A stretch of 11,922 nucleotides of DNA from a virus (taxonomy: Duplodnaviria > Heunggongvirae > Uroviricota > Caudoviricetes): IMG/VR virus record IMGVR_UViG_638341086_000004; one strand, given 5' to 3'. Below are positions 2,946 through 9,110 of the stretch, one piece after another. The first letter of the stretch is position 1. Every line of letters starts with the position of its first letter. The position numbers and the translations under genes are program-made. The notes under the pieces were generated by a model that saw nothing but the letters and a program-made list of their open reading frames with translations, was not told where the DNA came from and ran no database searches.

Positions 2946-4016
2946 ATGGCTAACGCCTGGCTCAGATTATGGCATGACATGCCAAATGACCCTAAGTGGC
3001 GAACAATTGCCAGGGTGTCAGGGCAGCCAATTGCAACAGTGATGGCAGTGTATATCCACCTCCTGGTGAGCGCGTCACGAAATGTCACGCGAGGTCACAT
3101 TGATGTCACGACAGAAGATTTGGCAAGTGCGCTCGACGTGACAGAAGAGGTAATTGATTCAATTTTGCAGACGATGCAGGGGCGGGTACTTGATGGTGAT
3201 TTAATCACTGGATGGGAAAAACGCCAGGTGCTGAAAGAGGACAACGGCAATATTTCGCAAACCGCAAAATCTCCTGCAGAGCGCAAGAGGGCGCAGCGAG
3301 AGAGGGAAAGAAAGCGGGAACAAAATGGCGATTGTCACGGCGCGTCACGAAATGTCACGCACATGTCACGACGAGTCACGACAGATAAAGATACAGATAA
3401 AGATACAGATAAAGATACAGATAAAGATACAGATCAAGAAGATCAAAACACTATGGTCCATGGCGTAAAAAACGCCACGAACCAGGCAGGGGATGTTCAG
3501 ACCGTCAATCCTGGTCAGCCAGCAGGCACGACACCGGAAGCCGATTCGGGCGCTGTGCAGCAGGTGATGACCGCAAGGCCGGAGCAATCACACCAACTGC
3601 AGCAGCCCGAAGCCGATTCCGCCATTCAGCGGGAAGCCGATCGGGTAGTCCCGGAAAACACCGGTCAGTCTGTGGGACGAGTGGATTATCCGGATGTGTT
3701 CGAACAGGTCTGGCGGGAGTACCCGTTGCGTGCTGGGGCAAACCCGAAGAAATCCGCTTTCAGTGCCTGGAAGGCCAGATTACGCGAGGGGGTGCCACCA
3801 GAGGCCATGCTGGATGGTGTGAGGCGTTACGCGAGATACCTGGCGGCGACCGGGAAAGCGGGAACGGAATTTGTTCAGCGAGCGACGACGTTTTTTGGGC
3901 CGGACCGGAATTTTGAAAACCCCTGGTTGCTCCCGGTAAGCGGCACGAACAACCAGCGTTGCGTGAATCACATTTCTGAACCGGACACTGAAATACCGCC
4001 GGGATTCAGGGGGTGA
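2946..4016 (+). CDS. Phage replication initiator (O-like role) with a DnaT-like C-terminal domain
   Basis: ORF starting at the ATG at 2946 (GAGG RBS 5 nt upstream; the ORF track starts at GTG 2940). The C-terminus ...VNHISEPDTEIPPGFRG resembles the C-terminus of E. coli primosomal protein DnaT as I recall it. The middle of the gene carries iteron-like repeats and an AT-rich tandem repeat. It is immediately followed by a DnaC-like gene. Confidence 0.8.
   Translation: MANAWLRLWHDMPNDPKWRTIARVSGQPIATVMAVYIHLLVSASRNVTRGHIDVTTEDLASALDVTEEVIDSILQTMQGRVLDGDLITGWEKRQVLKEDNGNISQTAKSPAERKRAQRERERKREQNGDCHGASRNVTHMSRRVTTDKDTDKDTDKDTDKDTDQEDQNTMVHGVKNATNQAGDVQTVNPGQPAGTTPEADSGAVQQVMTARPEQSHQLQQPEADSAIQREADRVVPENTGQSVGRVDYPDVFEQVWREYPLRAGANPKKSAFSAWKARLREGVPPEAMLDGVRRYARYLAATGKAGTEFVQRATTFFGPDRNFENPWLLPVSGTNNQRCVNHISEPDTEIPPGFRG
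3074..3110. repeat. Iteron-like cluster 1: four GTCAC(G/A) motifs phased ~10-11 bp apart
   Basis: GTCACG at 3074, 3084 and 3105, GTCACA at 3094. The 20-mer CGCGTCACGAAATGTCACGC (3071-3090) recurs exactly at 3341-3360. Confidence 0.55.
3334..3380. repeat. Iteron-like cluster 2: five GTCACG motifs phased at helical-turn spacing, directly upstream of an AT-rich tandem repeat (candidate phage origin)
   Basis: GTCACG at 3334, 3344, 3354, 3365 and 3375. Contains the second copy of the 20-mer CGCGTCACGAAATGTCACGC. Lies inside the initiator gene, as lambda-type origins lie inside O. Confidence 0.6.
3384..3431. repeat. Perfect 12-bp tandem repeat (GATAAAGATACA x4, then a degenerate partial unit), AT-rich; encodes a (DKDT)n linker in the initiator
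   Basis: Read directly from the sequence; units at 3384, 3396, 3408 and 3420. Immediately 3' of iteron cluster 2. Confidence 0.85.
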
Positions 4017-4790: not shown

Positions 4791-5562
4791 ATGGAAACCG
4801 TATCTGACGCACTGAAAGCACTGAAAAAAGCCTCTTCACATGTGGTGGCAGCTCGCCTTGGAATCAGTCGTGAAGAGGCTGTCAACGAGCTGTGGGAACT
4901 CAAAAGAAATGGCGTCGTTGATAAAACTGGTCACACCTGGTTTCTGGCTGGCGAAGGTGAATCCCTGGTAACCGAAGAGCTGCCAGTAAAATCTGAAGCA
5001 CAGGATATGCTGACCGGGGAGGTCGAACAAAAAGTTACCGCAGACATGATGATTGAGTTTATCGGTCAGGGATGGGGCTAAAACGTGTGAGGAACTGGCG
5101 GGTAAGTTCGGCGTCAGTACTCGCAAGGTTGCTTCCACGCTGGCGGTGGTAACCGCAACGGGGCGGCTGGCACGCGTTAATCAGAGCGGTAAATTTTGTT
5201 ACTGCATGCCGGGCGATAATTTACCAGCAGAGTCGAAAGCCGCGCTGGTAACGGAAAATGATGGTAAGGCCTTTCCTCAGCCAGCAGGTGCTGCGTTACC
5301 AGTCCGGGAAGCCGCAACACAGGAAGAAATTAAAACAGAAACTGTGGCGGACATTGTGCAGCCGTTGCTATCGTTTACCGAAACGCAAGCAGATGAGCTG
5401 ATTTTTCCGTCCCTGCGCAGGGCAAACCTGGCGCTGCGCAGGGCGAAAAGTGATGTTCAGAAGTGGGAGCGAATCTGCGCCGCGCTGCGGGAGCTGAACA
5501 AGCACCGGGATATTGTTCGACAGATTACTGATTCTTCCCGCCGTGTTGTATCGGAAAAGTGA
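4791..5562 (+). pseudogene. Winged-helix-like protein of unknown function (DUF1627-like), apparently split by a +1 frameshift in a G-run at ~5069-5071; the two ORF-track pieces are 4791-5081 and 5053-5562
   Basis: The first ORF (RBS GGAGG, ATG 4791) stops at 5079-5081. The second ORF continues in the +1 frame and has no ATG/RBS of its own (the ORF-track start is TTG). Removing one G from the GGG at 5069-5071 fuses them into one ~257-aa protein (...[21 protein letters not shown]...). Confidence 0.5.
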
Positions 5563-5577
5563 TTGCCGAAGGCGCTT

Positions 5578-6003
5578 ATGGCAAAAGTATTTACACAAGA
5601 AGAGCGAGAAAAAATTAAAGGGCAGGTTGTTGAGCTAGTACGCCGGAGTGGGCGCGAGACGTTACGGCAACTGGAAGCCAAGACAGGTGCGACAAGATAT
5701 CTGATGAGCGTTCTTGCCAGAGAGCTGGTTGCCAGTGGTGATGTATATCACTCTGGCTATGGGTTGTTCCCGTCAGAACAGGCGCGTAAGGACTGGCAAA
5801 ACGCCCGCAAAAAACTCTCGAGGGCAAAGGTGAAGAAACCTGTTGTGGTTGATCCGGGCCTTATCTGGACATTACCCGACGGAGAAATACACCGCTACGA
5901 CAGGCGTATGAACATAATCTGTCGCGAGTGCCGGAAGAGCGAAGCTATGCAGCGTGTACTGGCATTTTATCAAGGAAATGTTAGATATTTTAGACGTTAC
6001 TAG
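5578..6003 (+). CDS. Hypothetical prophage protein (141 aa from the ATG at 5578), possible winged-helix N-terminus
   Basis: ORF with a GAAGG RBS ~7 nt upstream of the ATG at 5578 (the ORF-track start at 5563 is TTG). No recognisable catalytic motifs. Confidence 0.6.
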   Translation: MAKVFTQEEREKIKGQVVELVRRSGRETLRQLEAKTGATRYLMSVLARELVASGDVYHSGYGLFPSEQARKDWQNARKKLSRAKVKKPVVVDPGLIWTLPDGEIHRYDRRMNIICRECRKSEAMQRVLAFYQGNVRYFRRY

Positions 6004-6156
6004 ATTAAAGAGCATTAGTTCAGATGTGAATTGACATTTTCATGGCGCAGGGTAGAGCCAGCGTGGTTGTCCGCTTTGCGTCAAAACCAGATATTACCAG
6101 ATTTAGACATATATTCCCGATAGCCCTGCTCTGATGCTACACTCTGTGCTATTTTC

Positions 6157-6843
6157 ATGACCCCAATAAAAATATTTATGACTATTGCTGATTTCAAACG
6201 GCCTAAATTGGAGCTTCCAAACGGGGCAAACAAACTACTACTGCACTCTTGCTGTGCTCCATGTTCCGGTGAAGTGATGGAGGCGCTTCAGGCCTCGGGA
6301 ATCGACTACACCATCTTTTTCTACAACCCGAACATTCATCCTCAGAAAGAGTATTTAATTCGTAAGGATGAAAATATTCGCTTTGCTGAACAACACGGCG
6401 TGCCGTTTATCGATGCTGATTACGACACCGACAACTGGTTTGAACGTGCCAAAGGAATGGAATGGGAGCCTGAGAGGGGGATCCGTTGTACCATGTGTTT
6501 TGACATGCGTTTTGAGCGGACAGCGTTGTACGCTGCTGAAAATGGTTTCAGTGTGATCAGTAGTTCACTGGGCATTTCACGCTGGAAAAATATGCAGCAG
6601 GTTAACGAGTGTGGGCGGCGAGCTGTTGCGCATTATCCGGGTATGGTGTACTGGGATTATAACTGGCGCAAGCAGGGCGGCTCGTCCCGTATGATTGAAA
6701 TCAGCAAGCGCGAAAAATTCTATCAGCAGGAATATTGTGGCTGTGTGTATTCTCTGCGCGATACCAATCTACACCGCAAATCTCAGGGACGCCCTCTTAT
6801 CAAAATTGGCCAACTCCACTACGGAAAAGAAGAGAAGGAGTGA
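6157..6843 (+). CDS. QueH-like protein (DUF208/COG1636 family, putative epoxyqueuosine reductase-type Fe-S enzyme)
   Basis: 228-aa ORF with the [11 protein letters not shown] motif that I recall as the hallmark of DUF208/QueH, plus further conserved Cys (CTMCFD, EYCGCVY). No clear SD; an alternative ATG lies at 6178. Extended -10-like TGCTACACT at 6134-6142. Confidence 0.7.
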
Positions 6844-7021
6844 TTTTATGGATCACCTTTCTGATTGATTTCATATTGGCGAGGTGACGTGAGTTAAGTA
6901 GAATTGCTGCGGGTGCCTGAGGCTGTCTGCCTCAGGCATGAACACCAAAAGGCAGATAGAGAAAGCCCCAGTTAACATTACGCGTCCTGTAAGACGCTCA
7001 ACATTAATCTGAGGCATATGG

Positions 7022-8146
7022 ATGCGGATGAAAGAATTAAATAAATTCAGAGTGATAGACCTCTTTTGTGGGGCAGGTGGATTATCTTATGGTTTTCTTC
7101 ATGGAGAGATGTCTGACTACTTTGAAAGTATCCTTGCTATTGATAATAATGCTGCAGCTATAAATACCTACAATGCCAATTTTGGTTTGCATGGAGTTCA
7201 GGCAAATATTGAGGAGTGGGCATCCAGCAATACTGTTCCTGAGGCTGATGTGGTCATAGGTGGCCCCCCGTGTCAGGGATTCAGTTTATTGAATAAGAAT
7301 CGTTATGGTGATCACCGAAGAGCATTGTGGGAGCCTTATATGGATGTCATTGAGCGTTCAAGGGCTTGTATGTTCGTCATGGAAAATGTCCCCGGATTGC
7401 TGATAAGCGATGAGTTTGCGGACATTACGTTTAGAGCGAAATCCATGGGCTTTATTCTGCTTAATCCAATGGTGTTGAATACTGCTGACTATGGAGTACC
7501 TCAGACAAGAAAACGAACGATAGCAATCGGTATCAAACGAGAACTCTTCGATGTGCATAGTATTCCGGCGTTCCCGCCAGCACCAACGCATCGTTCCCCT
7601 GATAAGGATGTCGCTTTGCCTGAATGGGTCTGTACGCGTGATGCAATTGGTGACTTACCTGCTCCTGTTGGAACTGATATTCGTAATGAACTTCCTCCGC
7701 TGAACTTACATTTTGGGCGTAATCCCACACCTGTTTCTCTGGAGCGATATAAAGCGGTTCCACCAGGAGGTAACCGTTTCGATTTACAGAAAAAAAGACC
7801 TGATATAACCCCGGCGTGCTGGCTAAAAAAGAAATCTGGAGGGACCGATTTGTTTGGACGTCTGTGGTGGGACAAACCTTCAGTAACGATTCGTACTGAG
7901 TTTTTCAAACCGGAGAAAGGGCGATATTTACATCCGGAAGAGGATCGGCCAATAACTCATCGTGAGGCAGCGAGATTAATGTCTTTTCCTGATAATTTCA
8001 TTTTTACCGGTTCAAAAACTGAGATTGCAAAGCAGATCGGGAATGCTGTTCCACCGCTATTTGCGGCAAAAATCGCACAATATGTGTATGGAGTTTTGCA
8101 GGGACGGTATAAGAATAACATCAGTAAGAATAGTCAAGCAGCCTGA
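7022..8146 (+). CDS. DNA (cytosine-5)-methyltransferase (Type II R-M modification subunit)
   Basis: 374-aa ORF with canonical C5-MTase motifs in order: I (DLFCGAGG), IV (GGPPCQGFS), VI (ENVPGL), VIII (QTRKR), IX (RPITHREAARLMSFPDNFIF), X (GNAVPP). RBS GAGG 7 nt upstream. Confidence 0.92.
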   Translation: MRMKELNKFRVIDLFCGAGGLSYGFLHGEMSDYFESILAIDNNAAAINTYNANFGLHGVQANIEEWASSNTVPEADVVIGGPPCQGFSLLNKNRYGDHRRALWEPYMDVIERSRACMFVMENVPGLLISDEFADITFRAKSMGFILLNPMVLNTADYGVPQTRKRTIAIGIKRELFDVHSIPAFPPAPTHRSPDKDVALPEWVCTRDAIGDLPAPVGTDIRNELPPLNLHFGRNPTPVSLERYKAVPPGGNRFDLQKKRPDITPACWLKKKSGGTDLFGRLWWDKPSVTIRTEFFKPEKGRYLHPEEDRPITHREAARLMSFPDNFIFTGSKTEIAKQIGNAVPPLFAAKIAQYVYGVLQGRYKNNISKNSQAA

Positions 8147-8160
8147 AGGAAATCCAGAAA

Positions 8161-9038
8161 TGAATGGAGATTTGGTTGACAGCATAGTTGGTTTTGCTGA
8201 AGCCAGAAAGGAGTTTCATGCCCAATTGTTACTGAATACGCTCACAATTAATACTGCCGGAGTTGTTAGTAACGCAGATAGCAGTAACAAAAACAGTAAA
8301 GCTATAGCAAGAGAAATTGCTCGCTTCTTGCAGGCTGAAACGATTGGTGAACGTGTTGCAGGGCAAACATCTGGTAATCAGTTTGAGAGTATCTGCGCAG
8401 AGTTTATAGAAAAAACCTTTTTTAAACTCAGCCACTTACGCCCTGGAAAATGGAATGTACATCAGGTTTCTGGTAGAAACAGATTAGAGATAGCTAAATA
8501 TGAACAATATGCCCATCTTATAGCATTGGATAGTGCTGCAAAAAGTAATCCTCAGCTAGCTGCTGCACTGGGGAGTGATTATACGATTTCACCAGATATT
8601 ATTGTTGAAAGAGAACCTGAATGTGATCAAGTTATCAACAGTCCTGAATTACTGGTGGATGATTCTGTTACCCGCATGTCAGCTCTCAGGAGTTCGAATG
8701 GTGGGAAACCAATATTACACGCAAGTATTTCCTGCAAATGGACAATAAGAAGCGACCGGGCCCAGAATGCTCGTTCTGAGGCATTAAATCTTATTCGCAA
8801 CCGTAAGGGAAATCTCCCTCATGTAATGGTTGTTACTGCTGAGCCTACTCCAAGTCGTCTGGCGTCTATTGCTCTTGGTACTGGTGATATAGATTGCGTG
8901 TATCATTTTGCGCTTTATGAACTTATATCAGCAGTTGAAATACTGGGGCTCAGCGATGCAGCTGACATGCTTTCCGTGATGGTTAATGGTAAAAGATTAA
9001 AGGATATTTCTGATCTTCCCTTGGATCTTGCAGTCTGA
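8161..9038 (+). CDS. Putative Type II restriction endonuclease, NgoMIV/Cfr10I/Bse634I-like (PD...SxK...E fold variant)
   Basis: 292-aa ORF starting 15 nt after the MTase stop (RBS GAAGGA). Candidate catalytic residues E76, D146 (SPDIIV), S191-C192-K193 and E207, with K-to-E spacing of 14; this matches the pattern I recall for NgoMIV (E70/D140/K187/E201), offset by 6 residues. The ORF-track start at 8025 overlaps the MTase and is rejected. Confidence 0.7.
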
Positions 9039-9110
9039 CATCTCTACGTAAATAGAGTCTGTCATATTTTAACTGTGATGGCACGTCATTGACTTCAGTA
9101 CATTTTTACT

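Follow-up and report, generated by a model that had tools for sequence, protein, structure and literature searches.

In E. coli, queuosine (Q) maturation is taught as a B12-dependent process that proceeds via QueG (YjeS), a cobalamin- and [4Fe-4S]-dependent enzyme; the bacterium supplies the epoxyqueuosine (oQ)-tRNA substrate, with tgt and queA both present, and lacks de novo cobalamin synthesis. Both E. coli and Salmonella need cobalamin for the final step in making Q, a finding ascribed to Frey et al. 1988 where PMC4646009 cites that work. The QueH family is independent of cobalamin (PMC13443448), and both types of enzyme can occur in one genome: Staphylococcus aureus encodes QueG and QueH with differing expression profiles, which have been attributed to cofactor supply (PMC13443448), and the two also coexist in Streptococcus pyogenes and Streptococcus suis (PMC12632869). 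Phages, for their part, modify DNA with 7-deazaguanines (PMC6884629), using sets in which DpdA occurs with FolE/QueD/QueE/QueC, ArcS, QueF-L or Gat-QueC; a survey of viral deazaguanine genes published in 2019 reported no QueA, QueG or QueH homologues in the viruses analysed (PMC6884629).

The stretch of DNA analysed here (11,922 nucleotides, referred to as the window) contains an open reading frame of 228 amino acids on the plus strand (6157-6843), which an earlier note had described as a QueH-like (DUF208, CCAPC motif) gene carried as prophage cargo. Both parts of this description hold: the product belongs to the QueH family, and the gene occupies a sharply bordered slot between conserved phage genes. 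The locus and its surroundings comprise the following features, with coordinates in the window except in the last line:

5563-6003, plus strand: DUF977 (Ren-like exclusion protein) gene, left flank of the slot; Pfam DUF977 at E 1e-27, PHROG 142 Ren-like exclusion protein.
6096-6845, plus strand: queH cargo unit, an insertion relative to phages without queH; the minimal unit common to all queH alleles is 6129-6847.
6135-6143, plus strand: extended -10-like element TGcTACACT, about 43 nt upstream of ATG 6178, the putative queH promoter.
6178-6843, plus strand: queH coding sequence, 221 amino acids; assigned by Pfam QueH, PDB entry 7lc5, AlphaFold2 fold, six cysteines plus CCAPC, dN/dS and start-codon conservation.
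6846-7015, plus strand: hokD mRNA leader and sok region, right flank of the slot; Rfam RF01794 sok, with the hok coding sequence gone.
7016-9109, plus strand: type II restriction-modification (R-M) cassette, methyltransferase 7022/7028-8146 and endonuclease 8160-9038; Pfam DNA_methylase and NgoMIV_restric, PADLOC MTase_II and REase_II.
Other occupants of the slot: PD-T7-1 in mEp460 (record L015, 2839-4173, minus strand), PDC-S15/FRG in Tritos (L016, 642-1991, minus strand) and relBE in the Qin remnant (L177, 25387-25913).

Judged by its sequence, the queH product is a full-length QueH of the proteobacterial subfamily, typical and undiverged. Its match to Pfam PF02677 (QueH, formerly DUF208) runs end to end, over profile positions 1-174 of 175, with 221.5 bits (E 1.1e-65; gathering score 23.5), and the protein also matches the sequence of the solved Thermotoga maritima QueH (7lc5) with E 7.8e-22, at an identity of 30-33%. 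The CCAPC motif is part of the sequence HSCCAPCSG at residues 30-38 (228-residue numbering, also used for the cysteines below). In the alignment, C32, C33, C111, C114, C194 and C196 are retained throughout, from the E. coli protein to that of Thermotoga, and at the position of C36 Thermotoga has Asp13, which is mutated in PDB entry 9dco. With T. maritima QueH (DUF208, PF02677, COG1636; PDB entries 7lc5, 7lc7 and 9deu) the prophage protein thus shares the full-length profile, the six cysteines and the predicted fold, but it has CCAPC where the T. maritima enzyme has CCAPD. Since four diverged QueH sequences contain either CCAPC or CCAAC, cysteine appears to be the common state at this position and the aspartate of Thermotoga the exception. 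The CC(A)P(C/D), CxxC and CGC motifs are candidate ligands of an iron-sulfur cluster or metal, and roles of individual residues are read from PDB titles (C9S and D13N mutants) and from conservation. An AlphaFold2 model, computed from an alignment of 23 sequences (mean pLDDT 78.2, pTM 0.80), has T. maritima QueH as each of its five best PDB matches (target-normalised TM scores of 0.78-0.80, E 2e-10 to 6e-9), and the next matches, to TtuA and similar alpha-hydrolase-type folds, are far weaker; the predicted fold matches that of T. maritima QueH. RefSeq names the gene product 'epoxyqueuosine reductase QueH' in every carrier genome listed, which amounts to about 1000 complete genomes, and despite this name an NCBIfam search with the queH product gave no match.

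The longest open reading frame opens at ATG 6157, but this codon reads ATT in the diverged prophage allele L012, whereas ATG 6178 is kept across the queH alleles and agrees with the N-termini of homologues and with the RefSeq protein WP_000150294.1 (221 amino acids). These comparisons point to ATG 6178, not ATG 6157, as the start of queH, and we place it there; a Shine-Dalgarno sequence was found before neither of the two codons. In PHROGs, the product falls into family 3217, listed with 'unknown function', whose profile begins only at residue 34 of the 221-residue protein, downstream of CCAPC. This suggests that a truncated open reading frame has been called in many phage annotations.

The earlier note had regarded a QueH-like gene in a prophage as unexpected, yet queH turned out to be neither rare nor unannotated. 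Among 5426 complete E. coli genomes, 994 (~18%, or about one in five) carry queH, including strains of ST131, O157:H7, O111 and O103, and the gene is near full length and intact in 984 of these 994 carriers. Of the 1016 places at which it was found, 1013 are chromosomal. One of the three remaining copies is located on a 94.5-kb record annotated as plasmid pNR3838_1 (NZ_AP040233.1), which contains the same lambdoid early region, from the repressor to Q, and this record may represent a phage-plasmid or else an unintegrated or misassembled prophage. Outside E. coli, Escherichia albertii has queH in a prophage arrangement, and the isolated phage HannyBb carries it with the annotation hypothetical. 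A wider spread among phages, as might be read from faecal scaffolds labelled 'Bacteriophage sp.' and from 'phage' records of Staphylococcus, Listeria and Acinetobacter, was rejected; these records are unverified or unannotated, and the scaffold that we inspected, MT835504.1, is bacterial DNA encoding ABC transporters, argininosuccinate lyase and aspartate-semialdehyde dehydrogenase. Only HannyBb is therefore counted as a real isolated phage with queH.

Beyond Escherichia, the nearest QueH proteins are those of Scandinavium (92% identity), Kluyvera (91%), Enterobacter (88-90%) and Symbiopectobacterium (87%), followed at about 80% by those of Erwinia, Serratia, Dickeya, Photorhabdus, Providencia, Proteus and others, and at 75-80% by alpha- and betaproteobacterial sequences. 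With 78-92% identity to chromosomal queH of Enterobacterales, the prophage protein is not a diverged paralogue. The same comparison shows that the assumption of the earlier note, that enterobacteria normally use QueG, was too broad, as chromosomal queH at this level of identity is present in Enterobacter, Kluyvera, Scandinavium, Serratia, Erwinia, Dickeya, Photorhabdus, Providencia, Proteus and others. The inspected non-Escherichia loci are surrounded by ordinary chromosomal genes, and among 27 non-Escherichia loci tested none showed the phage neighbours, save for weak methyltransferase-like matches (23-25% identity) in three of them. Known queH genes stand in a chromosomal housekeeping context, in contrast to the copy on temperate phages and prophages. 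We also observed that the E. coli prophage copies retain 75-80% amino acid identity to QueH of Sphingomonas, Paracoccus, Neisseriaceae, Pseudomonas and Stenotrophomonas, in neighbourhoods that vary by genus, which hints at strong constraint on this subfamily, at frequent horizontal transfer, or at both.

For E. coli itself, reliance on QueG was borne out, with queG present in 5425 of the 5426 complete genomes, and a B12-independent route to Q in such a QueG-reliant host, one of the possibilities raised by the earlier note, is what best fits the data. We consider it quite likely that queH encodes a functional cobalamin-independent oQ reductase, captured from a proteobacterial chromosome along with a piece of its upstream sequence, which would act as a B12-free backup of QueG. 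As an iron-sulfur enzyme, the prophage QueH would convert oQ34 to Q34 on the host's tRNA-Asp, -Asn, -His and -Tyr without cobalamin; its catalysis on tRNA is predicted from homology. This is the same reaction on the same tRNAs as that of QueG, to which QueH is unrelated in sequence and fold, with the difference that QueH needs no cobalamin. Both enzymes are encoded in the carrier strains, so that the prophage QueH coexists with QueG instead of replacing it, unlike known QueH. Since E. coli as a whole already has the B12-dependent QueG and does not produce cobalamin itself, a phage-encoded QueH would free the final step of Q synthesis from the external B12 supply, in the way that MetE serves as a backup for MetH, and lysogens might benefit from it under B12 limitation. 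Against such a benefit stands that no established E. coli phenotype is known to tell oQ from Q. The donor would have been a proteobacterial, most likely enterobacterial, chromosome, from which the gene would have come with a short upstream region of its own to reach its present cargo slot in Qin- or Rac-like lambdoid phages, which is bounded by the DUF977 (Ren-like) gene on one side and by the hokD locus on the other.

Redundancy with queG in every carrier could also be taken to mean that queH is a neutral passenger, picked up by illegitimate recombination and without function for either phage or host, and the lack of a detectable strong promoter, terminator or ribosome-binding site would fit such a gene. 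The substitution pattern, however, contradicts this explanation. Between phage-borne alleles, dN/dS is 0.042-0.052 (about 0.045) at dS values of 0.29-0.48, and the gene has remained intact in nearly all carriers. In addition, its position is constant in prophages that differ in their replication and Q (antitermination) modules. The substitutions indicate that queH has been under strong purifying selection while residing on phages with differing modules, and we regard the neutral passenger as very improbable.

The borders of the inserted unit are defined by phages that lack it. In phages Tritos and mEp460, similarity to the window stops at about 6084-6095 and resumes at 6846, which gives the queH unit a size of about 750 bp, and diverged queH prophages as well as Scandinavium match it from 6128/6129 to 6847. 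The unit includes 30-80 bp of upstream sequence and ends two bases past the stop codon. On its right side, the sequence 6846-7015 has counterparts of 91-96% identity ahead of hokD/mokW in many phages; the Rfam sok match (RF01794) spans 6911-7091 with 61 bits against a gathering score of 59, in good agreement only from 6911 to about 7014. The order DUF977, queH, hok leader is found in all 80 IMG/VR loci that carry the identical protein. One characteristic of a moron is that it forms a discrete insert, flanked by conserved phage genes and missing from close relatives, and queH, with its borders at about 6096 and 6845, is such an insert.

In Tritos and mEp460 the same slot holds a gene on the reverse strand, which in mEp460 matches PD-T7-1 of the PADLOC catalogue (E 4e-157) and in Tritos matches PDC-S15 and contains an FRG domain; in the Qin remnant of E. 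coli O39:NM F8704-2 the slot upstream of hokD is filled by relB-relE. These alternative occupants indicate that Qin/Rac-like lambdoid phages have a defence and cargo hot spot, often loaded with conflict genes, between their DUF977 (Ren-like) gene and hokD. Both flanks of the slot are present in roughly 4200 E. coli genomes. The queH unit resembles lambdoid morons and cargo hot spots, such as relBE-hokD of Qin and prophage PD-T7-1, in its sharp borders, its fixed position, the alternative cargo in relatives and a putative promoter of its own; it differs from them in that its cargo is a tRNA-modification enzyme, theirs being a toxin-antitoxin, defence or virulence gene, and in that the scan around queH revealed no terminator. 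QueH itself matches nothing in the PADLOC catalogue, whereas its R-M neighbours and the slot occupants of mEp460 (PD-T7-1) and Tritos (PDC-S15) do.

This neighbourhood raises the question whether the same chemistry might serve in phage-host or phage-phage conflict, with a fixed Q state of tRNA changing the translation of genes biased in NAU/NAC codons and thereby perhaps the lysogen's response to superinfecting phages, colicins or anticodon nucleases, or else buffering the loss of B12 uptake in cells that have lost the BtuB receptor under pressure from phages or colicins. Besides the defence genes and relBE in the slot, the R-M system inserted directly beside queH speaks for such a role, and a 2026 preprint describes phage infection of Shewanella leading to higher Q through queG. 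Cargo hot spots, however, also harbour morons not involved in defence, the prophage protein is undiverged from housekeeping QueH and has no PADLOC match, and a link between oQ versus Q and phage sensitivity is not known for E. coli; the idea concerning BtuB is speculation. We therefore hold a role of QueH chemistry in conflict to be distinctly unlikely. BtuB is both the B12 transporter and a receptor for phages and colicins, and B12 may be short in the gut. A related proposal is that QueH is a lysogenic-conversion or conflict factor which, expressed from its own captured promoter within a hot spot of defence genes, would lock host tRNA in the mature Q state despite a lack of B12 or loss of BtuB, shift translation of NAU/NAC-biased genes and thereby change the outcome of superinfection, biofilm formation or induction. 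To this proposal we assign a small chance; if true, no other enzyme that matures queuosine in tRNA would have been known before as both phage-encoded and involved in phage-host conflict.

A generic scan around queH yielded neither a sigma-70 promoter (at least 9 of 12 matches) nor an intrinsic terminator, and the extended -10 element surfaced only through comparison of the upstream region with chromosomal orthologues. Chromosomal queH genes of Scandinavium, Kluyvera, Enterobacter and Symbiopectobacterium are preceded by the same element (TGCTACAAT or TGCTACACT) at positions -42 to -44, and in the form TGCTACA(A/C)T it is kept in the diverged prophage alleles L012 and L013. More generally, TGnTAnnnT was found upstream in 17 of 51 related loci as opposed to 2 of 51 control windows. 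The homology between the window and Scandinavium opens at 6128, just ahead of the element. Its occurrence in chromosomal orthologues suggests that queH arrived with its own promoter, and the element at 6135-6143 is probably an extended -10 promoter captured together with the gene, which would permit expression in lysogens apart from the early operon. Alternatively, because the generic scan gave no sigma-70 promoter, queH may be expressed by read-through from the phage early-right operon, mainly after induction. A search of Rfam over 5900-7300 revealed no cobalamin or preQ1 riboswitch or other B12-linked regulation; the only convincing match was the hok/sok leader, the one other entry listed being DABA-DC-AT with E 0.71, far under its gathering score.

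The earlier note had also drawn attention to an R-M system next to queH. The system is real and consists of a C5 methyltransferase gene (7022-8146) and an NgoMIV-family endonuclease gene (8160-9038), but its adjacency to queH is incidental. Its genes occur in only 59 of the 5426 complete E. coli genomes, compared with the 994 that carry queH; in ST131 and in most other carriers queH is followed by hokD, and among the 80 IMG/VR loci hokD comes next in 56 and the R-M genes in 20, with four loci cut off. In the window, 2094 bp with the R-M genes (7016-9109) stand in place of 287 bp with the hokD coding sequence in the O25b:H4 strain. The R-M cassette is thus a separate, rarer insertion that displaced the hokD coding sequence and is not part of the queH unit, and a functional link between QueH and the R-M system was rejected on the basis of prevalence and insertion borders. 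The hok leader with a promoter-like site (TTGGCG-17-TAGAAT at 6876-6904, detected by promoter scan) was left directly upstream of the methylase start, so that the promoter of the toxin may now drive the R-M genes. As a side observation, GCCGGC, the NgoMIV site, is absent from the window of 11.9 kb, where 3.2 sites are expected under a first-order model; in the rest of the prophage, counts are near expectation (12 versus 13.5 and 9 versus 11.2), and these are too few sites to call avoidance.

The prophage as a whole bears on the substrate of the enzyme. This is a Qin-like lambdoid prophage situated between rspAB and the Qin remnant, with queH in its early-right region, and prophages of E. coli Z1323HEC0393 and O39:NM F8704-2 share 99.2-99.6% identity with the window from position 611 onward. 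The element in F8704-2 is a complete lambdoid prophage inserted beside rspAB. In order, it encodes an integrase, an exonuclease, dicB, ydfC, repressor and Cro, YdaT, a replisome organiser, a DnaC-like ATPase, DUF1627, DUF977 and queH; these are followed by the methyltransferase, the NgoMIV-family endonuclease, DUF968, RusA, a Q-like antiterminator, a DNA methyltransferase and three tRNA genes, after which come lysis genes, terminase, head and tail genes, sodC, lom and type III secretion (T3SS) effectors. Neither dpdA or a tgt-like gene nor folE, queC, queD or queE is annotated anywhere in this prophage, from the integrase to the tail fibres and effectors, and a Pfam scan of the window proteins found no DpdA/TGT-like transglycosylase and no preQ0 synthesis protein.

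A relative of QueH acting on another deazaguanine substrate had been suggested in the earlier note, which also pointed to neighbouring dpdA or queCDE genes as the thing to look for. In place of oQ in tRNA, such a reductase would use either a free nucleoside or a deazaguanine derivative contained in the phage DNA. DNA modification with 7-deazaguanines is indeed known from phages (PMC6884629), and T. maritima QueH was crystallised with free GMP and queuosine, although these are ligand complexes and not evidence of another substrate. As the prophage has no annotated transglycosylase or preQ0 genes, no epoxy-deazaguanine could be installed in DNA; moreover, the known deazaguanine bases of phage DNA do not include oQ, QueA is absent, and the protein, at 78-92% identity to chromosomal QueH, retains every conserved residue of a typical QueH. 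A different substrate is consequently most unlikely. The described phage sets and the prophage queH have in common that they are phage-borne genes of the deazaguanine/queuosine pathway; the former put preQ0-derived bases into DNA, and none of their genes is found here, while QueH is predicted to act after the base has been inserted into tRNA.

A search of the literature covered here for phage- or prophage-borne QueH retrieved no paper describing it; PMC6206895 and PMC3403352 proved to be false leads (an author name and an old remark on the RuvABC neighbourhood, respectively). The occurrence of QueH in a phage cargo slot thus seems to be undescribed, the enzyme family being ordinary. What is new at the descriptive level is a queuosine-maturation enzyme as stable cargo of temperate phages, its site in a hot spot of defence genes and, probably, its own promoter; with the enzyme family, its chemistry and the moron concept all known, this is an extension of existing knowledge and not a surprise. 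A second, predicted B12-independent reductase is thereby carried on a prophage in ~18% of complete E. coli genomes. If the enzyme is active, the Q/oQ status of tRNA in the carrier lineages would be uncoupled from cobalamin supply. This would be of relevance for studies of translation, biofilm formation and virulence as far as they depend on Q, and also wherever K-12 stands in for other strains; the gene would moreover constitute a rare case of a temperate phage equipped with a host tRNA-modification enzyme.

Three further observations concern other parts of the window. It starts inside an IS3-family element on the minus strand, which extends over 1-610 and contains OrfA (231-557) and an ALIL frameshift pseudoknot (160-276; Rfam RF01497, 119 bits); in complete genomes, similarity of the closest prophages to the window sets in only at 611 or 845, so that this IS3 insertion is specific to the source strain. 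At about 5069, the window has one G more than F8704-2 and O25b:H4, by which the DUF1627 gene (4791-5562) is broken into two overlapping open reading frames (4791-5081 and 5053-5562), which is either a frameshift mutation or a sequencing error. Finally, the replisome-organiser gene contains tandem repeats with a 10-bp unit present five times (3333-3383) and a 12-bp unit present 4.9 times (3381-3439), the latter encoding (TDKD)n; the repeats might act as iterons of the origin, like those in lambda O, or might simply form a linker of low complexity.
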